Part shown: positions 9,351 through 64,000 of the stretch, piece after piece
Numbering within the stretch: the first letter of the stretch is position 1
How the letters are laid out: each line of letters begins with the position of its first letter
Notes under the pieces: model-generated
Seen by the model: the letters and a program-made list of their open reading frames with translations, nothing else
What the model was told of the DNA's origin: nothing
The model's database searches: none
Made by a program: the position numbers and the translations under genes
Assembly: GCA_002418835.1 (NCBI GenBank)
Contig: DIEX01000026.1
Span: 72,547 to 136,546, forward strand
Length of the DNA stretch: 64,000 nucleotides
From: Spirochaetia bacterium UBA5763
GTDB taxonomy: Bacteria > Spirochaetota > UBA4802 > UBA5550
Direction of reading: 5' to 3'

Positions 9351-9830
9351 ATGACAATAATGGCTGCAAAACTCACAAAAGAACACCTTGAGCAGATAGG
9401 GGAATACCTTGTAGAAAAATTTCCCGCCATACGCGGAGGGGTAAAATCAAAATCATATTCCCGCGATTTTGAAATTGAGATACGGGAAAGAATTGTCCGT
9501 GTAGAAGAGGAACTGAAAAATCAGAGAGATCTTATACTTCAGACTCTCAATTTCAACGGCAAACAGTTCGAGCAGGTCGACAAAAGGTTCGAACAGGTTG
9601 AAAAGCGTTTCGAGCAGATCGACAAACGCTTTGAACAGGTCGATAAACGTTTTGAACAAATAGATAGACGCTTTGACCAGGTTGACAAAAGATTTGAACA
9701 GATGGACAGACGCTTTGAGGAGATTCATAAGAGCGTGGATAAACGCTTCACGATGATGATGTGGTTTACAGGACTGGGGCTCACCCTGGTTACAGCCTTC
9801 ATAACCGGTGTTACTGTTTTACTTAAGTAA
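9351..9830 (+). CDS. Tail-anchored coiled-coil protein with about 8 tandem heptads (KRFEQ[VI]D)
   Basis: The repeat run is KQFEQVD KRFEQVE KRFEQID KRFEQVD KRFEQID RRFDQVD KRFEQMD RRFEEIH, followed by a C-terminal TM segment MMMWFTGLGLTLVTAFITGVTVLL. AGGAG lies 7 nt upstream of the ATG. Confidence 0.7.
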   Translation: MTIMAAKLTKEHLEQIGEYLVEKFPAIRGGVKSKSYSRDFEIEIRERIVRVEEELKNQRDLILQTLNFNGKQFEQVDKRFEQVEKRFEQIDKRFEQVDKRFEQIDRRFDQVDKRFEQMDRRFEEIHKSVDKRFTMMMWFTGLGLTLVTAFITGVTVLLK

Positions 9831-29869: not shown

Positions 29870-30060
29870 GGGGCATCACGCAAAGACGCTAAGGCGCGGA
29901 GGGGGTTGAGAATGCAAGCAACTGGGTTAACGACCATCTGTTTACCAGTGATGATGAGGGAAATGGGGAGAACCCAACGGTTGGTTCAAATACTGAAGGT
30001 GACAATGGAGGATCAACTTCAGAACAGATAGCTTCCAACCAGCTTTCGACAGATCAGAAG

Positions 30061-30723
30061 ATGACCGAATACAGACATGCTACAGAAACGAATGACTCTA
30101 CCGAAGAGGAAGATTATACCCCAGGTAAATTTAAACAATCAGAAATCGATGAACATATTGGATTACTTGATGAAAATGGTAATTTAATAAAAAGAAGCTG
30201 TAATATTACAGCAGATATTAGCATATTTGTAAATCAGGCAATTAAAGATGGAACGATAAATCCCGATATAATCAATCCCGCAACAGGTGAAGTAGATTTA
30301 ACAAAAGTATATGATATTGCAAAGAGTTATGGAGATTCGATTATAAAAGGGAATTTCAGTGTCGCTGATGATGAAAAGCTTGCTAAGATTATTGCACCAA
30401 CTTCAAATTATTCTTTAGTCAATGGTGGGACAGTAACATCAGATAATATAATAAATCATCTGGATAGTGGGCAGCCTGTTAAAGTAACATTAAGTGATGG
30501 GCATAGAGAAACTATATATGACTATGATACTGATGCAAATGGTAATGTAACCAGATTCAAGATAGATGATGTCGGTTATCAGGGGGATAAATACGTAGAT
30601 CCAAAGACAATGCAGCCATACAAGGTTACCAATGAAGGAACTAAATATGAAAAGAAAAAATATTCTCAAAGTCACGGTGATGGCTCAGCAAGAACTGTTA
30701 ACAATATACAAGTTTTACAATGA
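30061..30723 (+). CDS. Papain-fold (Cys-His-Asp) putative toxin or amidase domain, probably a 5'-truncated orphan module
   Basis: The candidate triad is RSCNITADISIF, then SGQPVKVTLSDGHRETIYDYD, then FKIDDVG. The frame is open from 29893 (after a TAA at 29890-29892). Codons 29893-30060 contain no in-frame ATG, GTG or TTG, and the ATG at 30061 has no obvious RBS. Confidence 0.45.
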   Translation: MTEYRHATETNDSTEEEDYTPGKFKQSEIDEHIGLLDENGNLIKRSCNITADISIFVNQAIKDGTINPDIINPATGEVDLTKVYDIAKSYGDSIIKGNFSVADDEKLAKIIAPTSNYSLVNGGTVTSDNIINHLDSGQPVKVTLSDGHRETIYDYDTDANGNVTRFKIDDVGYQGDKYVDPKTMQPYKVTNEGTKYEKKKYSQSHGDGSARTVNNIQVLQ

Positions 30724-30754
30724 TTGAAAGACTAAAAGGGGGATTGAATAATTT

Positions 30755-31381
30755 ATGAAAAGATCTATGACTACTTGGTTGTTTGCTTTAATCCTTATAG
30801 TTAGTTACCAATTTGTTGAGTGTAAGACAGATAGTAAAAAAACTCTGCCGAAATTTGAAGAAATTAATAAACAAACCGGAGTCTATATAATCAGATATTC
30901 AAATGTAATTTTAGATATTAATAATAAAAAAATTAAGGTTCCTATTTATAACGGTATTCATGAGGATATCACTTATGAAGATTTAGAGAAACAACAAACG
31001 GACAAAGATTTATATTTATTAGGCAATATTTATATTCCAGCAAAAGACGGTGAAGTTAAGAAAACATTTTTTGATATATTGAATTTTTATAAGAAGAGTT
31101 TTTTTAAAGATATAGATGTAAACAGGCCATCCGTAATAGGCAATGAAGGTGGAGTTGACATGTATATCTGGTATGACTTTGATTACGAAGGAATCCCCTG
31201 CTCAATGATGATTACAGTGGCATGTGATGTTAAAGCTTCAATTGAAAAAAATAAAAAGGAGAATTCAAATCAAAAAAAGAATTATAAGATAGAAACAGTA
31301 GATATGCTTGAATTTAAAGAAGATTCAAAATGGATCGGAATCGATATTGAGTTAGGTCATTATAGCGAATTCAAGAAGTAG
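30755..31381 (+). CDS. Secreted or lipoprotein hypothetical, a candidate cognate immunity protein
   Basis: The signal peptide is MKRSMTTWLFALILIVSYQFVEC. The gene starts 31 nt after the toxin-like ORF, shares its AT-rich composition, and has AAGGGGGA upstream. Confidence 0.4.
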   Translation: MKRSMTTWLFALILIVSYQFVECKTDSKKTLPKFEEINKQTGVYIIRYSNVILDINNKKIKVPIYNGIHEDITYEDLEKQQTDKDLYLLGNIYIPAKDGEVKKTFFDILNFYKKSFFKDIDVNRPSVIGNEGGVDMYIWYDFDYEGIPCSMMITVACDVKASIEKNKKENSNQKKNYKIETVDMLEFKEDSKWIGIDIELGHYSEFKK

Positions 31382-31422
31382 CCAGGCGAACAGGTAATTT
31401 TTTATTACATTTTGCAATGAAT

Positions 31423-31555
31423 CCGCATATAGCATAATGGCTAAGCAGCCCGACGTCGCCGGGGATACATTAGGTTTCTGACATAAAAAGTTGGCGATGT
31501 GCGCTCGCCCTGAGCCTGTCGAAGGGTTAACGAACGGGCTGCGACAATTATGCGG
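31423..31555. other. GC-rich nested-helix element, either a candidate structured RNA or a REP-like element
   Basis: The nested complementary pairs are ccgcata (31423-29) with tatgcgg (31549-55), gcagcccg (31445-52) with cgggctgc (31535-42), and gtcgcc (31454-59) with ggcgat (31493-98). Confidence 0.35.
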
Positions 31556-31633
31556 TGTGCGGATGCGGGGAACGGATTTTTAATACATTAAGTTTATGCG
31601 GTGGGATAGTTTAGAAACATAGAAATATTTCTT

Positions 31634-31663
31634 TTGACATAAACCTGTATAAAATATAGGTTT
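31634..31663 (+). promoter_or_regulatory. Putative vapBC promoter with an operator palindrome
   Basis: TTGACA at 31634-39 is followed by the near-palindrome aaacctgtat-aaa-atataggttt (31641-31663), about 20 nt upstream of the vapB ATG. Confidence 0.35.
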
Positions 31664-31682
31664 TATCCACGCAGGAGGAAAT

Positions 31683-31913
31683 ATGATCAATCTGGAAATC
31701 AAAAAAAAGCTTATAGAGGACTTAAAAAATCTCCCCTTTGATTCTCAGAAAAAGGTGCAGGAGTTCGCGCACGCCCTTCTGATAACTCAAAGCCGGGGGA
31801 AATCAGGCAAAGAGATGGTCAGGTTTTCAGGAAAACTGAACCACGAAGATGCCGGAGAGCTGAAAAAGATAATTGAGAACGGATGTGAGAAGGTTGATAT
31901 CAATGAGTGGTAG
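31683..31913 (+). CDS. vapB: Type II antitoxin (VapB-like)
   Basis: This 76-aa ORF has GGAGGA upstream. Its 3' end overlaps the PIN gene start by 11 nt, and it ends in the ..CEKVDINEW-type tail common in PIN-partner antitoxins. Confidence 0.65.
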   Translation: MINLEIKKKLIEDLKNLPFDSQKKVQEFAHALLITQSRGKSGKEMVRFSGKLNHEDAGELKKIIENGCEKVDINEW

Positions 31914-32307
31914 ATATCTGGTTGATACCAATATTATTATTGATCTCTTTAATGGTGATGATGCTGTCACAAAGAAGATTATTACATGCTCTGAAGTCTT
32001 TGTTCCAAATATTGTAATCGGGGAATTGTATTACGGCTCATACGGCTCAAAGAAGAAAAAAAGCAATTTAAAGAGGCTTGAAGAATTTATTGTTTCATCA
32101 ACAGTAATTAATACAACTGTTGAGACGGCCAGAATTTACGGGCATATCAAGAATGAGCTGAAGAAGAAGGGAACCCCAATCCCTGAGAATGATATCTGGA
32201 TAGCCGCACTGGCAAAACAGTATTCATTGAAACTATTAACAAGAGACAGGCATTTTGAATCTATTGATGAGATAGATGCAGAGATACTGCGAAGCAAAAC
32301 GCCATGA
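31903..32307 (+). CDS. vapC: PIN-domain ribonuclease toxin VapC
   Basis: I placed the start at the ATG at 31903. The acidic PIN residues lie in YLVDTNIII, IGELYYG, ENDIWIAALA and LLTRDRHF. Confidence 0.85.
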   Translation: MSGRYLVDTNIIIDLFNGDDAVTKKIITCSEVFVPNIVIGELYYGSYGSKKKKSNLKRLEEFIVSSTVINTTVETARIYGHIKNELKKKGTPIPENDIWIAALAKQYSLKLLTRDRHFESIDEIDAEILRSKTP

Positions 32308-32351
32308 TACCTTTCCCCTTTTCCGATAATGCATGAGTTTAACTGAAACTT

Positions 32352-32603
32352 ATCGGCATTGATTAAAAATACATCGACACCGACTGAATTTATATCAGCT
32401 TCAATAGAAATTACATCAAGCTCGATATAATTTACATCAACGTTGATTGAATTTATATCGATTTCAATTGATTTTACATTGAATTCAATGCAAAAGGTAT
32501 CGAGGCTGACTGAATTTATATCAGTTTCAATATAATTTATATTGAATTCAATTGAAATTATATCGGCTTCAATACAAAATACATCAACGATGATATTAAT
32601 TAC
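32352..32603. repeat. Twelve tandem, perfectly phased 21-bp AT-rich direct repeats
   Basis: The unit starts (ATC or ATT) fall at 32352, 32373, 32394 and so on to 32583, exactly 21 bp apart with no indels. The consensus is approximately ATCRNNNTCRATNNAAWTTAY. Confidence 0.9.
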
Positions 32604-32760
32604 TTGAGTCAGGCGTTTTTTTCATTAATATAAGTTATTCTTTGTCATGCCGGTTTCCTGTAAGGAATACCGGCAACTCATAGTAGAAGTTCTGGAATTT
32701 ATCTTATGAGATTCAGGTATTTACAAATTCGGAAGACGTAAAACCGGTATTAAAAACTTT

Positions 32761-33588
32761 ATGACAGAAAAAGAAGATCTCCGCTACATAGAAAAAATCG
32801 AAAAGACCGCAGGACGGGCAATCAACCGCTACTCTCTGATCGCCGGTGGCGACCGTGTTGCAGTTGCACTCTCCGGAGGGAAAGACTCCCTTGTTCTACT
32901 TGAAACTCTTGCCCGCAGAAGAAGAAGGCTCCCTGTCACTTACGAACTCTTTGCAGTATATGTATTCATAAAAAATATAGGCTACGAATCTGATATAAAC
33001 TTTATGCGGGAATTCTGCGCGTCTCTCGATGTCCCTTTTCACCTCATAGAGATGGAAGCAGACCTCACCATTGACCGGAGCAAATCTAAATGCTTTGTAT
33101 GCTCATGGCACAGGAGAAAGGCTCTCTTTAATTTCGCGGAGGAGATGAGCTGCAATAAACTTGCCCTTGGCCATCACCTTGATGACGCAATAGAAACACT
33201 GATAATGAACATGATGTTCAATGGAATAACAAGCTCTCTCCCCCCTTCCCTCTCAATGTTCAGCGGCAGACTGCATGTGATACGGCCCCTGATACTTCTT
33301 GAAAAGAAGGAGATTGATAAATACGCTGAGATAAGGGTATTCCCTTCTGAAGTTAAACGCTGCCCTTATGGAGAAGATACAACGAGGATCAAAGCCCGTG
33401 AGATGATAGAGCAGATGACATCCGGGAGCAGCACAATAAAAAAAGTATATTCCGCAGTATGTCGAATATTCACAAAGAGTATCTGCCGCCTGAATAAGCA
33501 AGGGGCTGCAACCCCTTGTTTATTCAGGCAACCCCTTGCTCCTGTGGCAAAAAATCAATCCGGAAGATTATACCCGCACCCTTCATAA
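32761..33588 (+). CDS. ttcA: TtcA-family PP-loop tRNA thiolation ATPase
   Basis: The PP-loop is VALSGGKDS. Cys motifs are SKCFVCSWHRRK and KRCPYGED, and LALGHHLDD is also present. The last 30 or so codons run through a GC hairpin and overlap the convergent gene. Confidence 0.75.
   Translation: MTEKEDLRYIEKIEKTAGRAINRYSLIAGGDRVAVALSGGKDSLVLLETLARRRRRLPVTYELFAVYVFIKNIGYESDINFMREFCASLDVPFHLIEMEADLTIDRSKSKCFVCSWHRRKALFNFAEEMSCNKLALGHHLDDAIETLIMNMMFNGITSSLPPSLSMFSGRLHVIRPLILLEKKEIDKYAEIRVFPSEVKRCPYGEDTTRIKAREMIEQMTSGSSTIKKVYSAVCRIFTKSICRLNKQGAATPCLFRQPLAPVAKNQSGRLYPHPS
33499..33518 (+). terminator. Hairpin caagggg-ctgcaa-ccccttg followed by tttattc, lying inside the 3' end of the ttcA-like ORF
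   Basis: A perfect 7-bp GC-rich stem is followed by a T-rich tail. A second copy of caaccccttg lies at 33528-33537. Confidence 0.45.
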
Positions 33589-33917
33589 GGGCTGATATTC
33601 TCCTCCTCCTGAAGATGAGTAACATCCTCGTAGTACGGGAAGTCTTTGCACATGCGGGGCCTGATATGATGAATTGAGCATCCGGGGAGTCCGTCCGCTC
33701 CGATAGAGTAATGTTTGCATCTGTAGTGATACGGCAGGTCTGCATCAGGCTCCTCAAATAAAAATGTAAGCATCGGATATATGAGGTATATCTCTGAAAA
33801 GTTGGGGTCTATCTGTTTTGTTTTTTTCCAGTAGCCGTAGGCCTTCTCAAGGAGTTCCGGGGACTCCGCGAGCATCACATCCTGGCAGCATTTTCCGCAT
33901 CTGATACAATCTCCCAT
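33555..33917 (-). CDS. YkgJ-family (CxxCxxCC) zinc/iron-chelating cysteine-cluster protein
   Basis: The N-terminus is MGDCIRCGKCCQD, with additional conserved Cys and His residues (YHYRCKH, GCSIHHIRPRMCKDFP). Confidence 0.7.
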   Translation of the reverse strand: MGDCIRCGKCCQDVMLAESPELLEKAYGYWKKTKQIDPNFSEIYLIYPMLTFLFEEPDADLPYHYRCKHYSIGADGLPGCSIHHIRPRMCKDFPYYEDVTHLQEEENISPYEGCGYNLPD

Positions 33918-34020
33918 AAAAGCCCCTGTTTCCCCATATTATAAATAATGCAAGTTTGCCTGTTAATCTGAAATGTACCCCGCTACTTATCAATAAAAAT
34001 TTACTGAATCAATCTATTTC

Positions 34021-53494: not shown

Positions 53495-53998
53495 TCAGCG
53501 GAATGTGCGGTTGGCCCACTGAATAAAACCGCTCAGTGTGAAAACATCAAGATGCTTATCCATATTCTGTTCATTTCTGTAGAGATTATTTTCTGCTGCA
53601 TTCCTGAGCCATTGCACCGCGCCCTCTCTTGCACCGCCGCCATCTACAATTATGACGATGTGATTTTCGGGCATTGCTTCAATGCAGTTGAGATACAGGT
53701 ATGGAAATTTTTCATCAACGCTCCCCCCTGACTGCTGCCATTTGCATTCAATGCGGATTTCAAGATTATATTTTTCAGACTTAAGCAGAAATTCAGTATA
53801 CCCGTCGTGGCCGTATATATTTTTAAAAGGAACATTTTTAAGGAGGAGCTCCGAACCGAAATTATCTCTGTGCCTGTTCCACTCGCTCCACATGACAGCT
53901 TCAAAACCTTTACGCGTAAAAGTGGAAATCACAGCTTCTTCGAGAACCTTACCCTGGCCGCTGGCGAGAGAACCCTTCTTTCTATTCTGCTCCGGCAT
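53495..53998 (-). CDS. Small PD-(D/E)XK-like nuclease, a putative type II restriction endonuclease
   Basis: The candidate catalytic motif is GHDGY..(E)IRIECKWQ (D..ExK). The gene overlaps the 3' end of the upstream methyltransferase gene by 17 nt. Confidence 0.5.
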   Translation of the reverse strand: MPEQNRKKGSLASGQGKVLEEAVISTFTRKGFEAVMWSEWNRHRDNFGSELLLKNVPFKNIYGHDGYTEFLLKSEKYNLEIRIECKWQQSGGSVDEKFPYLYLNCIEAMPENHIVIIVDGGGAREGAVQWLRNAAENNLYRNEQNMDKHLDVFTLSGFIQWANRTFR

Positions 53999-54923
53999 TT
54001 TTTTCCTTCAGCTTTTCCACACGTTTAACAGTGAGATCACAATAACCCTGGTTTATTTCAATTCCGATATAGTTCCGTCCGCCAAGGAGTTGAGAAGCAA
54101 TTCCCGTTGTACCTGCACCGTTGAATGGATCAATAATCAGATCACCGGGATTTGTTGATGCAGCTACGATTCTTTTAAGGAGAGCAAGGGGCTTCTGCGT
54201 GGGATGCTTGCCCGATCCCTTTTCATTCTGCGGAGGGGTGGGGATACTCCAGACTGAGCGCATCTGCGTGTTCTCCTTCTTCATCTTATCTTCCGGGAAC
54301 TCACCGTTTTTCATCAGTTCATAATTGAAGGTATGTTTTGCTTTTTTATCTTTGCGCGCCCAGAGGACTGTTTCATGTGATGCTGTAAAAAAACGGCAGC
54401 TCAGATTAGGTGAAGCATTCGGCTTGAACCATGTAATATCATTAAGCAGATGAAAGTTAAGCTTCTGAAGGAGAAAACCGCACTGGTAAATACTGTGGTA
54501 CGTACCGCTAATCCAGATTGTGCCTTCAGGCTTCAGAACCCTCCTGCATGCTGAAATCCATATCTCGTGAAACTTCATATCTTCGTCAAAGCCGCTGCTC
54601 TTGTCCCACTTCCCTTTGTTTACGCTTACCATCTTTCCATTCTGGCATGTGAACCCGTCATTGGAAAGCATGTAGGGCGGATCAGCAAATATCATGTCCA
54701 CCGAGTTTTCCGGGATCCTCTCCAGTATCTCAAGGGAATCATCGTTATATAGAATAAAACCATCCGATTTGTAATAAGGCATTATCGAGCCATGCGACGG
54801 ATGAGATATGTTCTCCATAAGCTTAGTCAAATCCCTGTTAGAGGATTTTCCTTTTTTGGATACAGCAGTTTTTTTCTTTCCAGGATTTGAATTCATATAT
54901 TTTCCGTTATGAATATATTTCAT
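53982..54923 (-). CDS. Beta-class N6-adenine/N4-cytosine DNA methyltransferase
   Basis: Motif IV IFADPPYML precedes motif I IIDPFNGAGTTG. This is the circularly permuted beta order of the N4/N6 MTase family. Confidence 0.9.
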   Translation of the reverse strand: MKYIHNGKYMNSNPGKKKTAVSKKGKSSNRDLTKLMENISHPSHGSIMPYYKSDGFILYNDDSLEILERIPENSVDMIFADPPYMLSNDGFTCQNGKMVSVNKGKWDKSSGFDEDMKFHEIWISACRRVLKPEGTIWISGTYHSIYQCGFLLQKLNFHLLNDITWFKPNASPNLSCRFFTASHETVLWARKDKKAKHTFNYELMKNGEFPEDKMKKENTQMRSVWSIPTPPQNEKGSGKHPTQKPLALLKRIVAASTNPGDLIIDPFNGAGTTGIASQLLGGRNYIGIEINQGYCDLTVKRVEKLKEKNAGAE

Positions 54924-60804: not shown

Positions 60805-63800
60805 CTACATATGAACAATAAACACAGGTACAAGACCTATTCCGTCACTGAGAGAATCAAGAGCCTTCCCTATTACAGTGCCGACTTTTTCAAACGAATC
60901 AATTTTCCCTTTCATACCGCATCCGGGAGTATCTGACGCAACAATCAGATCGCCGGGTTTAACAGGATTATTCCTCGCATCAATTCTGCAGAGAGCTTTA
61001 CCTGAAAGAGAAACGGGATAGAGTCTCTCCTCTTTTCCTGAATTATTTATAGCAAGATAGGGGTTTCCTGAAACAATTCCTATAACGGATCTGTTATATC
61101 TCTTTTTTGATCTGGATAAAACTGAATTTCCATTTTCACTCACAACAAGAAGGTCTCCAGGTGTTACAAACTCCGCCTCATCAACTTCAAATAGTTCAAC
61201 TATCCCTCCGGGGAATTCCTGATTTTTCCCGTCACCGTTAAGATTAACCCTGCCGTGAAAATCAGAACTGCCCATTGCCAATATAGCCTTCCCCTCACCC
61301 TGAAGATTCATGGTGCTGTCGAACCTGTTCATAGTCGGGCCATAACCGTCAGCGATGAGCGAAAAATCATGCTCACTGCTGAACACCCCCCCTGCGCCGA
61401 ATCTGGATGCTCCGGCAACACCGGCTCCTGTTCCGGAATCCCCGGTTGCCTGTCCACGTACACCAACATGCCTGCTGTGGCCCATAACTCCATAAGCATT
61501 AATCTTCTCTTTCGCGTTAGCACCGGCAATACCTGTTATACCAATGGCAAATGTCTTCTCTGATGTATTGTTCGCATAAACAACAGCGGAACCGTCAGAT
61601 GGCGGAGTCACATCGCTGAAAGGTTCATTCTTCTCCGCTCTGATTGCAACTGTTCCTGTATGACTGTTATGGTCATGCTTAACCGGAGCGTAATCATGAG
61701 TATGAGGGAGAGGATCCCTGTTGTCACTGAGCCTTACATCGTCCGCCTGTACAACAGCACCGGTTGTGCTCTCTCCGTTTCCGGCAAGCTTTACAATGCC
61801 CGAAGCTGACTCAGTTGCAGCTTTAAGCCTTCTGTCATTACCCTGCACAACAACTTCAGGAGCGTCCTCGCCATTTTCAGCAAGTTCGACTATTCCTCTG
61901 CTCACTGTGGTTGCAGGTTTAAGCCTTTTGTCATTACCCTGCACAGCCACACCATCTTTATCCTCTCCATTATCCGCAAGTTCAACTATACCTTTAGCTG
62001 AAGTTGTTGCATCACGAAGTCTTCTGTCATTACCCTGCACAGCTGTAAGAGCGTCTTTACCTCCGTCAGAGGCGAATTTCATTATTCCATAAGCAGTTTC
62101 TGAGGCCTCTTTCAGCCTTCTATCACTGCCCTGCACAGCAACTCCGTCTCTCTCTTCCCCATCCTCAGCAAGTTCTACTATACCCTTAGCAGATGTTGTT
62201 GCATCGCGAAGCCTTTTATCATTCCCCTGTACTGAAGTGCAGGCCTCTGTGCCTCCATCCGGAGCGAACTTAACTATACCTGTACTGATAGTTGTGGCCG
62301 GTTTCAGTCTCTTATCATTACCCTGTACTGCAACACCATCTTTATCTTCACCGTCTTCAGCAAGCTCAACTATACCTTTTGCAGATGTTGTAGCATCTTT
62401 TAATCTCCGGTCACTTCCCTGGACAACAACCCCCGGAGCAGTTTCACCATCCTCTGCAAGTTCAACTATACCCTTTGCTGATGTAGTGGAATCCTTTAGA
62501 CGGCTGTCGCTCCCCTGAACTGCAACTCCATCCCTCTCCTCACCATCTTCCGCAAGTTCAACTATACCTTTAACTGATGTGGTGGCATCCTTCAACCTTC
62601 TGTCATTTCCCTGAACCGCAACACCTGAGCTGTCCTCACCATCCTCTGCAAGTTCAACTATCCCCTTACTCACAGTTGTTGCGTCCTTCAACCTCCTGTC
62701 AGTGGAGATTACAACTGATCCCTCAACAACCGCTCCATCACCCGCGAGCTGTACTATGCCCTTAGAATATGTTGTAGCATCTTTAATTCTCCTGTCATTA
62801 CCCTGCACAACTGTTCCCTGGTTTGCTCCGCCGTCTTCAGCCAGAATTGTTATACCTGGAGAGGTTGTTGTAGCTTTCTGCAGCCTTGAATCATTACCGG
62901 AAACAACTGAATGTTCCCTGTATTCACCGTCTGAGCAGAGCCTCACTATACCGAAATTGTCCTCTGTCGCATGCTGGAGTCTGGAATCGCTGGCCTGCAC
63001 TGCTGCATTAGGAGTTGTTTCCCTGTCGTAAGCCAATTTCACAATACCTGGCTTCATTTCTGACGCAGGCTGAATCCTGCTGTCGTTAGCCTGAACCGCA
63101 ATGCCCGGCCTTGACTCACTGTCATTTGCAAGCTGCACAATACCCTTGAAAACAGTGCTTGCATCCCTTAATCTTGCGTCAGTGGACTGAACAACTCTTC
63201 CCGGCTCACTCTCACCGTCGCGGGCAAGTCGTACCATCCCCGCATGGAAAACAGATGCATGGGGAGCAATATCCCCTACATTATGTGTATGCAGATGGTT
63301 TACCGGAGCTGCTGATACCCCTAACTCCGCAACTCTGACTCCGTATTTTCCGGTAAGAAACTTCTTAGCCGGAGCTTCAAACCTGACAAAACGCGCGGGC
63401 CTTACATCTGTTAGCCAGCCATATCTTTTATTCGGCTCCGCCTCAAAACCGTTCTCATGTATTAATGTAATCCATATTTCATTATCAACTGATGTCTCTA
63501 TGTGAAAAGTATCAGGAAATCCGTCTATCGAAGATGTCAGCATAATCCTGTTAAGACAGCAGACTTTCCCCAGGTCAATGCAGACATTCTCCATTTTTCC
63601 TGCTGCTGCCTGCTCTGTTTCCCAGTAACTGCCGCCCTCTATTAGAAGATTCTCCGGACCGTTACCAGATGTGTAGCTGCTTGATTTTATCTCCTCTACA
63701 CCGAAAATGCCGGCTTCAACCCTCCCTATCTCGGAATAGTAGTTTGAGCCAAGTACTGCCGGATCTGTAATCAGAATCTTGAGGTACCTTACAACAGTAA

Positions 63801-64000
63801 GAGGGAGATGAACTTCGTGCACATTTGAATCGAGGGATGTATTTGTTTCAGAGTAGAGAATACTCCATATTTCGGTATCATTGCTCCCCTCTAGTCTGAA
63901 TCCGCTGGGGAACGCAGAAGCACCGTTCCCTGATGCTGTAATTTTTATATAATCAATTGCTGATTCCTTTTCAAAATCAATTACAACGAATTCCTTTATT
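60805..64000 (-). CDS. Large fibre/adhesin-like protein with discoidin (F5/8 type C)-like N-terminal modules, sixteen 32-aa tail-fibre-like repeats and a C-terminal beta domain. The 5' end lies beyond the window.
   Basis: The ORF track starts at a GTG (63822). My own translation shows that the same frame stays open upstream to base 64000 (..IKEFVVIDFEKESAIDYIKITASGNGASAFPSGFRLEGSNDTEIWSILYSETN..). Confidence 0.85.
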   Translation of the reverse strand, partial: IKEFVVIDFEKESAIDYIKITASGNGASAFPSGFRLEGSNDTEIWSILYSETNTSLDSNVHEVHLPLTVVRYLKILITDPAVLGSNYYSEIGRVEAGIFGVEEIKSSSYTSGNGPENLLIEGGSYWETEQAAAGKMENVCIDLGKVCCLNRIMLTSSIDGFPDTFHIETSVDNEIWITLIHENGFEAEPNKRYGWLTDVRPARFVRFEAPAKKFLTGKYGVRVAELGVSAAPVNHLHTHNVGDIAPHASVFHAGMVRLARDGESEPGRVVQSTDARLRDASTVFKGIVQLANDSESRPGIAVQANDSRIQPASEMKPGIVKLAYDRETTPNAAVQASDSRLQHATEDNFGIVRLCSDGEYREHSVVSGNDSRLQKATTTSPGITILAEDGGANQGTVVQGNDRRIKDATTYSKGIVQLAGDGAVVEGSVVISTDRRLKDATTVSKGIVELAEDGEDSSGVAVQGNDRRLKDATTSVKGIVELAEDGEERDGVAVQGSDSRLKDSTTSAKGIVELAEDGETAPGVVVQGSDRRLKDATTSAKGIVELAEDGEDKDGVAVQGNDKRLKPATTISTGIVKFAPDGGTEACTSVQGNDKRLRDATTSAKGIVELAEDGEERDGVAVQGSDRRLKEASETAYGIMKFASDGGKDALTAVQGNDRRLRDATTSAKGIVELADNGEDKDGVAVQGNDKRLKPATTVSRGIVELAENGEDAPEVVVQGNDRRLKAATESASGIVKLAGNGESTTGAVVQADDVRLSDNRDPLPHTHDYAPVKHDHNSHTGTVAIRAEKNEPFSDVTPPSDGSAVVYANNTSEKTFAIGITGIAGANAKEKINAYGVMGHSRHVGVRGQATGDSGTGAGVAGASRFGAGGVFSSEHDFSLIADGYGPTMNRFDSTMNLQGEGKAILAMGSSDFHGRVNLNGDGKNQEFPGGIVELFEVDEAEFVTPGDLLVVSENGNSVLSRSKKRYNRSVIGIVSGNPYLAINNSGKEERLYPVSLSGKALCRIDARNNPVKPGDLIVASDTPGCGMKGKIDSFEKVGTVIGKALDSLSDGIGLVPVFIVHM
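61723..63258 (-). repeat. Sixteen tandem 96-bp (32-aa) coding repeats
   Basis: The consensus is ATTSAKGIVELAEDGEDKDGVAVQGNDRRLKD. The first unit is ASVFHAGMVRLARDGESEPGRVVQSTDARLRD and the last is ATESASGIVKLAGNGESTTGAVVQADDVRLSD. 16 x 96 = 1536 bp, with no indels. Confidence 0.9.

Follow-up and report, generated by a model that had tools for sequence, protein, structure and literature searches.

The locus described here raises the question of what is encoded, or bound, by twelve contiguous 21-bp repeats lying between a toxin-antitoxin pair and the gene of a PP-loop ATPase. The repeats are found in a 64,000-nucleotide stretch of DNA from Spirochaetia bacterium UBA5763 (contig DIEX01000026.1, positions 72,547 to 136,546), hereafter called the window, which sits within a 163-kb metagenomic contig. 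The initial annotation, made from the window alone, proposed either a protein-binding array of the plasmid iteron or centromere type or the remnant of a heptad-repeat gene. Our analysis leads to a different answer. The array is a non-coding, helically phased series of dyad-symmetric units under constraint as DNA, and it is one of a dispersed family of such arrays beside gene starts. Most likely this family is small and undescribed, with its members found in a group of uncultured Spirochaetota-like bacteria. We tentatively favour a function in which a putative protein coat modulates the adjacent promoter.

Organization of the array

Positions 32352-32603 hold 12 head-to-tail units of 21 bp with no insertion or deletion between them, as seen on reading the sequence and in an in-register print; this part of the initial annotation is borne out also by Tandem Repeats Finder, which reports periods of 21 and 63 across 32366-32574. 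A repeat search of the window returned nine overlapping 73-nt copies, each offset by 21 nt. The degenerate purine/pyrimidine pattern of the repeats, taken over 4.5 units, has eight matches in 64 kb, all of them within the array (0 of 100 shuffles match). The ENA, JGI and Logan assembly records are identical across 32250-32800, so the array is not an assembly error. As had been annotated, it starts just past vapC, with 44 nt separating it from the end of that gene at 32307.

Each unit is formed by two TYRA tetramers set as a degenerate 12-bp palindrome (ATYRRNNYYRAT, of the form ATYRR-NN-YYRAT) and by the 9-bp AT-rich spacer that follows it (WNAWWWTRY). The unit consensus, ATYRANNTYRAYTGAAWTTRY, was derived from a position table that combines 73 units, drawn from seven arrays of the family; the arrays designated below L157 and L158 were found later and are left out of this table. 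Units of an array are diverged, with about 65-70% identity, and perfect palindromes occur in three units of the window (5, 7 and 10; Table 1). The two GAATTC-centred palindromes recognised previously are those of units 7 and 10, and the third, ATCAACGTTGAT in unit 5, had been overlooked; it is the centre of a 42-nt inverted-repeat pair (I1). The array is preceded by a decayed terminal unit, and a degenerate first unit of similar type is present in the arrays L006, L035 and L059. According to a wedge model, the mean twist of the array is 10.48 bp per turn, which makes a unit of 21 bp equal to 2.00 turns.

A dispersed family of arrays beside gene starts

At least nine arrays of 5-16 units were found at at least six independent loci in spirochaete-like contigs. 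The pattern scan of metagenome contigs matched at least 120 stretches, mostly unrelated 21-bp satellites or coding repeats, and among the matches listed four arrays were relevant (L035, L059, L071 and L105), with diverged units and a consensus like that of the window. Protein searches with array translations added three more loci, solely as gene-caller artefacts: P0001 (L156), P0002 (L157) and P0054 (L158). A scan of viral sequences gave unrelated repeats only, and a search of the literature on 21-bp intergenic tandem repeats in spirochaetes gave nothing relevant. The arrays constitute a dispersed intergenic repeat family with several intergenic copies at unrelated loci of related genomes; one genome may hold several of them.

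Three pairs of arrays are orthologous, namely the window and L006, L071 and L157, and L059 and L156. In the first two pairs the units correspond one by one with about 85% identity, and the only indels, of 42 bp and 63 bp, comprise whole units. L006 is a Spirochaetota metagenome-assembled genome (MAG) whose TtcA is 85-89% identical to that of the window; ten of the units and the last two match one-for-one (84.5% identity), and the sole indel of 42 bp corresponds to two units. L157 differs from L071 by the three-unit, 63-bp indel and by 15% substitutions, and it contains a block duplicated at a distance of 105 bp (5 units). In L059 and L156 the array is kept before the same gene despite the differing left flank, with turnover of its units. 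L157 comes from the same metagenome as L160, a contig with a 450-aa protein identical to one of the window and with the same gene order.

At five of the six loci found, the array precedes a start codon at a distance of 6-157 nt, and both orientations are represented (Table 1). Where the gap is 6-60 nt, the promoter or the 5' leader of the gene must overlap the array. The occurrence of both orientations together with the dyad symmetry of the unit makes a function of double-stranded DNA more economical than a function of RNA. The link to vapBC is incidental, because the L006 orthologue adjoins a DUF4160/DUF2442 pair instead and other arrays have no toxin-antitoxin neighbour. To the left of the L006 array this pair is accompanied by a gene of a ParE toxin, and to the right lies a gene of a 391-aa secreted beta-helix protein.

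Constraint on the DNA sequence

In the 73 units, which are related by duplication and so are not independent observations, transversions are missing at positions 1, 3, 4, 10, 11 and 21 and number one or two at positions 8, 9 and 20. Several of these nine purine/pyrimidine-constrained positions have transitions near 50:50, and positions 6, 7 and 14 accept any base. The YR steps at positions 3-4 and 9-10 are CG, CA or TG; TA is found there in 2/73 and 0/73 units (Fisher p = 2e-6 and 2e-8, respectively), so that one G:C pair or more is retained in the middle of each TYRA tetramer. Between orthologues the nine constrained positions have accumulated 22 transitions and 3 transversions, against 15 and 28 at the other twelve (Fisher p = 3e-5). 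Since the changes at the nine positions are mostly transitions in this comparison too, the DNA-level constraint on the array is still acting.

This pattern has to be set against the possibility of a selfish or neutral dispersed minisatellite, similar to REP or BOX elements, that gains and loses whole units, has no role in the cell and is tolerated near gene starts. The variable copy number agrees with it, as do visible multi-unit duplications such as that of L157, the restriction of every indel to whole units and the turnover of units at the one locus shared by L059 and L156. The islets around the arrays are moreover variable, and next to the arrays they contain GC-rich hairpins of REP type, toxin-antitoxin cassettes, fragments of RHS genes and a group II intron; the identity of the arrays between species is no higher than that of other intergenic regions. 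However, nine positions refuse transversions and take transitions freely, both within arrays and between orthologues, and TA is excluded at two symmetric steps. Neutral decay would leave no such pattern, given how frequent transversions are at the remaining positions (28/43). A minisatellite devoid of any role is therefore considered unlikely.

The heptad frame of the minus strand

One frame of the minus strand is open from 32621 down to 32136 (162 codons) and reads as heptads. Its first ATG, GTG or TTG codon is the TTG at 32297, which is already past the array. The frame had been described correctly as stop-free and lacking a start codon in the array, but the TAA-TGA that opens it is at 32622-32627 and not at 32616-32621. 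A run of seven A lies between the heptad frame and a 9-codon open reading frame (ORF; Table 1), and the loss of one A would fuse the ATG of the latter to the heptad frame. The JGI record contains here a minus-strand "gene" (32339-32625) with a 9-aa product, possibly a frameshift-tolerant call.

It could be supposed from these features that the array is a pseudogene of a heptad-repeat (coiled-coil) gene, with the seven-A run as a frameshift or slippage site that may still allow some expression. The length of the open frame, the ATG-initiated ORF restored by a single deletion at 32616-32622 and the hydrophobic Ile/Val residues at coiled-coil positions a and d would suit such a gene. An exhaustive phmmer search with the heptad translation yielded 185 proteins at E <= 1e-3, with heptads of the SIETDVS, TIQTDIG and VSADVNS type. 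These matches appear, however, to be generic coiled-coil heptads of unrelated proteins and gene-caller artefacts rather than orthologues; the true relatives among them are just ABM and CoaE genes extended upstream through the array, plus a fragment of L006. A word-indexed comparison of heptad-frame translations with 5.8 billion protein clusters revealed no intact homologue: the translation of the window had no match, and that of L035 had one, an ABM gene extended through the array. The Pfam scan of the repaired heptad ORF gave no match.

Comparison of the loci leads in the same direction. The frame is interrupted by stops in L006 (an internal TAA), L071 and L105 and lacks a start codon in the window, L035 and L059. 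The same-frame flanking sequence differs between the six unrelated loci, which share no coding flank, and an intact heptad ORF with conserved flanks was not found in the relatives examined. Nor did the orthologous loci compared contain the intact minus-strand ORF with a start codon that the initial annotation proposed to look for. A plus-strand frame is likewise open in L035 and L156 and closed in the window and L006, which indicates that open frames are a by-product of the unit sequence.

The distribution of substitutions is also not that of a gene. In the two unit-orthologous pairs (window/L006 and L071/L157) only 16 of 68 substitutions (24%) fall on third codon positions of the heptad frame, compared with the 67% taken as reference from the neighbouring ttcA (p = 3e-13). 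For ttcA the values at the three codon positions are 0.10/0.07/0.35, and for ABM the substitutions number 3/3/20 (77% third). According to the position table, third positions of the heptad frame are on average the most conserved ones, and synonymous sites are constrained in a position-dependent way. With A at unit position 1 in 73/73 units, Asp/Asn is encoded by GAT or AAT, and the alternatives GAC and AAC do not occur. For Ile/Val, one heptad position uses RTA and another uses RTY, and codon 6 ends in a pyrimidine throughout, even in about 36 cases where the codon is four-fold degenerate. The TA exclusion crosses a codon boundary. Finally, the supposed coiled coil would often have Phe and Ile at positions f and b, which are exposed.

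Taken together, the stops and missing starts, the substitution shares, the position-dependent codon choice and the TA exclusion place the constraint at the nucleotide level. The array is non-coding, the constraint is on its nucleotide sequence and not on a protein, and the DNA motif gives rise to the heptad "protein" as a by-product. The decayed gene is largely refuted for the present state, with no intact ORF in the relatives examined and no protein-level selection, and we hold the pseudogene for very unlikely; coding heptads are a possible origin of the array.

The open frame has affected public gene calls, in which arrays are fused to genes. ABM of L157 (746-1276, P0002) is called with 176 aa instead of about 102, and CoaE of L158 (103-837, P0054) with 244 aa instead of about 147, because the heptad frame is open through the array. 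The ABM gene has a GGAGG ribosome-binding site and a TTG start of its own, and the array at this locus is thus upstream non-coding DNA.

Two other tandem repeats of the window are located in ORFs. The first, at 9573-9718, also has a 21-bp period (7 copies of CAGATCGACAAACGCTTTGAA) and lies inside an intact 159-aa ORF (9351-9830, plus strand) with no Pfam match; it looks like a true coding heptad repeat and provides an internal contrast to the array. The second, at 61814-62701, comprises 96-bp and 192-bp tandem repeats (about 6 copies) in the ORF 60805-63822 of the minus strand, whose 1005-aa product has an F5/8 type C domain, and these are probably coding domain repeats.

RNA folding and other identities considered

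As RNA, both strands of the array fold better than shuffled sequences (plus strand, z = -3.6; minus strand, z = -6.2). Many pairs persist in the two-sequence consensus folds, and the minus-strand consensus fold of the window and L006 keeps 78 pairs, with 22 one-sided and 2 compensatory changes. These values could point to an element acting as a transcribed 5' leader, a 3' untranslated region or a divergent or antisense RNA, with imperfect duplexes between quasi-palindromic units. Transition-only variation is what G-U wobble tolerates, and the L156 array, which ends 6 nt before the start codon, is either in the transcript or holds the promoter. On the other hand, the array has the same orientation at ttcA, msrBA and the 829-aa gene and the inverted one at ABM and coaE, so the leader RNAs would be complementary instead of similar. 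A single 12-nt palindrome would leave a loop of 2 nt and so cannot fold back on itself, and each unit is able to pair with all the others. Quasi-palindromic repeats are expected to fold well, no unique fold is defined, and the consensus-fold method drops broken pairs by construction. Pairing explains neither the TA exclusion nor the invariant A at position 1, and the Rfam scan of 31000-34000 at E <= 1 gave nothing within the array. A role at the RNA level is accordingly judged quite unlikely.

Several further identities were rejected. Intrinsically curved promoter-upstream DNA was considered with the same wedge model: the local curvature is 9.1 degrees per turn compared with 7.3 +/- 1.3 for the background, and 43% of random 21-mers repeated 12 times curve as much as the array. 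The local bend is thus ordinary, and the strong global curvature is an in-phase sum over 252 bp, generic to the 21-bp period. Sites of restriction-modification systems (GAATTC, TCGA and ATCGAT) have the expected counts in the window. VapB is not a suitable array-binding protein, since the array is downstream of vapC, the inverted repeat of the vapB promoter is different and lacks the array motif, and L006 has no vapBC. A ToxI-like type III antitoxin array does not agree with the diversity of the downstream genes (PP-loop ATPase, MsrBA, the 829-aa protein, ABM and CoaE) or with the occurrence of both orientations, and a CRISPR array does not agree with contiguous units devoid of spacers. The units were also considered as promoters: hexamers resembling -35 and -10 boxes recur in them at about 19-bp spacing, with no excess over shuffles.

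Proposed function

Our preferred reading is that of a non-coding, helically phased dyad-repeat DNA element carrying a putative protein coat which modulates the adjacent promoter; we consider it to have somewhat less than an even chance of being correct. A dimeric DNA-binding protein would occupy the dyads and oligomerise along the array, with all sites on one face of the helix, 21 bp being two helical turns. Such a protein would read chiefly the purine/pyrimidine pattern and the shape of the DNA and would depend on one or more G:C pairs in the middle of each tetramer. Located on or beside the promoter of the adjacent gene, the nucleoprotein filament so formed would modulate this promoter, in the window that of the ttcA-like gene 157 nt downstream. 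The view of the initial annotation that the array binds protein on one helix face is retained here as the best reading, given non-coding, constrained dyads two turns apart; its attribution to a plasmid or to an integrative and conjugative element (ICE) is not.

A number of observations weigh against a protein coat acting on promoters, the first being that the binding protein itself is putative. The L006 array has a terminator-like hairpin on one side, between it and the DUF4160 gene, and the 3' end of a gene on the other, and the start codon nearest to it is 192 nt away; the L105 array has no start codon nearby. Hexamers of promoter type are no more numerous in the array and its vicinity than expected from shuffles, and a promoter-like match at its edge (TTGAGT-16-TAATAT, 8/12) is weak, lies below the scan threshold and comes from our own reading. 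Isolated copies of the motif are not enriched either, with 7 loose matches outside the array against 7.9 expected across the whole window. The common descent of the 73 units, mentioned above, reduces the weight of their statistics. In the window/L006 pair the difference is 41% at four-fold-degenerate sites and about 15% in the array; other intergenic regions, however, are equally conserved (82-95% identity), and between-species conservation was for this reason dropped as a proof of function.

Should the arrays indeed be coated by a protein, they would represent a novel system, regulatory or architectural, of a little-studied lineage of uncultured spirochaetes. The recognition code would be unusual, with nine of 21 positions fixed as purine or pyrimidine and a G:C pair needed at two symmetric steps. 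A broader proposal, which we regard as speculative and somewhat doubtful, is that of a new class of bacterial cis-elements: phased operator-like arrays of 5-16 sites directly upstream of diverse chromosomal genes, along which a spirochaetal DNA-binding or nucleoid protein, mainly by purine/pyrimidine (shape) readout, would polymerise on one helix face and control a promoter in either orientation.

Genomic surroundings

The window is chromosomal and contains core housekeeping genes. The Pfam scan of all its 46 ORFs identified HypF, IMPDH, RuvA, MetW, RtcB, PurD, a protein related to AIR synthase (AIRS domain) and a restriction-modification pair, and the genomes nearest by TtcA are MAGs labelled Spirochaetia, Spirochaetota or Leptospirales. 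These surroundings bear on the interpretation of the array as replication iterons of a plasmid or ICE, or as a parC/sopC-like centromere, beside an addiction module. Twelve direct repeats with dyad symmetry, each about two helical turns in length, beside a toxin-antitoxin pair do invite this interpretation, as does the formal likeness to R1 parC, TP228 parH and F sopC. But no gene of Rep, ParA/ParM/TubZ, a centromere-binding protein, a relaxase or an integrase was found among the 46 ORFs or in the 8 kb past the left end of the window; the 46 ORFs include no conjugation gene, and the 8 kb hold no further array. BLAST against 72,556 plasmids and 50,697 phage records gave no match to the array. 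The members of the family stand before msrBA, coaE, ABM and other unrelated chromosomal genes, and the L006 orthologue is beside a different cassette. This proposal of the initial annotation is extremely improbable. The case calls for caution in annotation: an open heptad frame, many phmmer matches and a toxin-antitoxin neighbour pointed to a pseudogene or a plasmid centromere, and both were wrong pointers, as follows from the codon-position analysis and the comparison of loci.

Table 1. Features of the window and of related loci (coordinates without a locus designation refer to the window)
Feature	Position	Strand or orientation	Basis or remark
Array of 12 x 21-bp units	32352..32603	no strand	In-register print, Tandem Repeats Finder, pattern scan, family position table
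Decayed terminal unit gcatgagtttaACTGAAACTT, right half of unit consensus retained	32331..32351	no strand	In-register print
Perfect 12-bp palindrome ATCAACGTTGAT, unit 5	32436..32447	no strand	6/6 complementary pairs
Perfect 12-bp palindrome ATTGAATTCAAT, unit 7	32478..32489	no strand	Same in L006 orthologue
Perfect 12-bp palindrome ATTGAATTCAAT, unit 10	32541..32552	no strand	In-register print
ATG and run of seven A; 9-codon ORF MKKTPDSSN followed by stop	ATG 32623-32625; seven A 32616-32622	-	Same in three assemblies; also L003 5437-5723
vapB	31683-31913		Upstream of vapC and array
Spacer, 157 nt, from array to ttcA-like start codon	32604..32760	+	
PP-loop ATPase gene, TtcA-like, putative regulated target	32761..33588	+	PF01171, E = 1e-18; array in its 5' region; positional rule across loci
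Low-GC accessory islet including array	29870..32760	no strand	GC profile and comparison with L007
Orthologous array, 14 units	L006 1367-1660		
Array of the window, ttcA-like gene		same orientation	Gap 157 nt
Array L035, msrBA		same orientation	Gap 60 nt
Arrays L059 / L156, 829-aa gene, function unknown		same orientation	Gaps 27 / 6 nt
Arrays L071 / L157, ABM		divergent	Gap 54 nt
Array L158, coaE		divergent	Gap 51 nt
Array L006, DUF4160		divergent	Gap 192 nt
Array L105			No close gene start

The array forms the right-hand part of a low-GC islet (GC 25-37%) that further contains a 220-aa RHS-like ORF, a 208-aa ORF, a GC-rich REP-like element and vapBC, whose vapC product is a PIN domain protein (Pfam, E = 8e-20). 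In the more distant relative L007 the islet is missing, and a 2555-aa TPR-repeat gene directly precedes ttcA at a distance of 158 nt, for which reason the islet is called accessory. The site between these two genes carries different cargo in L006 and looks like a hot spot at which toxin-antitoxin and RHS-like cassettes come and go. In the spacer between the array and the ttcA-like gene, relatives share just the final ~50 nt.

The GC-rich REP-like element (gcgctcgccctgagcctgtcgaagggttaacgaacggg...) is present at ~31490-31570 of the window and at 375-470 of L006, upstream of differing toxin-antitoxin cassettes. GC-rich hairpin elements are also found immediately to the left of the arrays in L035, L059 and L006 (in the latter at 1311-1340, terminator-like), and the array plus such a hairpin may be one composite element. 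The inverted repeat ataaacctgtataaaatataggttttat at ~31640-31675 of the window overlaps the likely vapB promoter; it bears no relation to the array motif and probably serves as the operator for VapB. Fragments similar to RHS/Tc toxins are situated near arrays at two unrelated loci, on both sides in L105 (19-963 and 2414-3070) and at 30061-30723 in the window, where the 220-aa ORF has a weak RHS-repeat match; this may be a coincidence or reflect a common kind of variable islet. At the ABM locus the array is adjoined by the gene of a group II intron reverse transcriptase/maturase (L071 5410-6780; L157 1-100), and the sequence between the intron side and the array is conserved in L071 and L157. 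The likely type II restriction-modification pair is encoded at 53495-54923 on the minus strand and consists of a PDDEXK_11 (PD-(D/E)XK) nuclease overlapping an N6/N4 DNA methylase. GATC is scarcer in the window than expected (214 observed, 288 expected).

Comparison with known systems

Plasmid partition centromeres often double as operators of the adjacent promoter. The parC site of R1 consists of two sets of five iterons (PMC2241845), parH of TP228 of degenerate tetramer boxes with AT-rich spacers (PMC3130281), and sopC of F is a repeat-array centromere (PMC2910045); a small dimeric protein coats such centromeres cooperatively (PMC2241845, PMC2910045). The array resembles these systems (R1 parC/ParR, TP228 parH/ParG and F sopC/SopB) in its many contiguous short repeats facing one side of the helix, and parH in particular in combining degenerate tetramer boxes with AT-rich spacers. 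In contrast to them, it is chromosomal, has no par genes and occurs at several loci before unrelated housekeeping genes; its unit length of 21 bp and its motif are different, and it has no similarity to plasmid records.

Replication iterons (R6K, P1, pSC101 and the phage lambda origin) are likewise direct repeats of 17-22 bp placed about two helical turns apart. In lambda each iteron has a dyad symmetry of its own, and the iterons are situated within an open reading frame. Unlike iterons, the array does not adjoin an initiator gene, its family occupies many loci, and the number of units varies from 5 to 16 among relatives. The array is a member of neither the centromere nor the iteron families, because their defining partner genes are absent.

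Tandem operators are exemplified by the ARG boxes of ArgR (21-bp centre-to-centre), the metboxes of MetJ, the hexamer arrays of Fur and the 9+12-bp repeats of LytTR regulators. Here too dyad or direct repeats in whole-turn phase are located on or near promoters, and the degeneracy of the sites is offset by cooperativity. The differences are that tandem operators have 2-5 sites and the array 5-16, that its motif fits none of their consensus sequences, and that isolated sites are not found in the window.

REP/BIME, pneumococcal BOX (with its variable boxB copies) and ERIC elements form long RNA or DNA hairpins with high identity between copies. They share with the array the several intergenic loci per lineage, the modular unit of variable copy number and the small repeats or hairpins nearby, whereas the units of the array are diverged, strictly phased at 21 bp and constrained in purine/pyrimidine class. 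Coiled-coil proteins of the SIETDVS and TIQTDIG type have the I/V-x-x-I/V-E-x-D periodicity of the minus-frame translation, but the frame of the array has no start, contains stops in relatives, shows no third-position excess and puts hydrophobic residues at exposed positions; the similarity is probably an analogy between periodic sequences. Judged by form, the closest analogues of the array would be plasmid centromere arrays, iterons and tandem operators.

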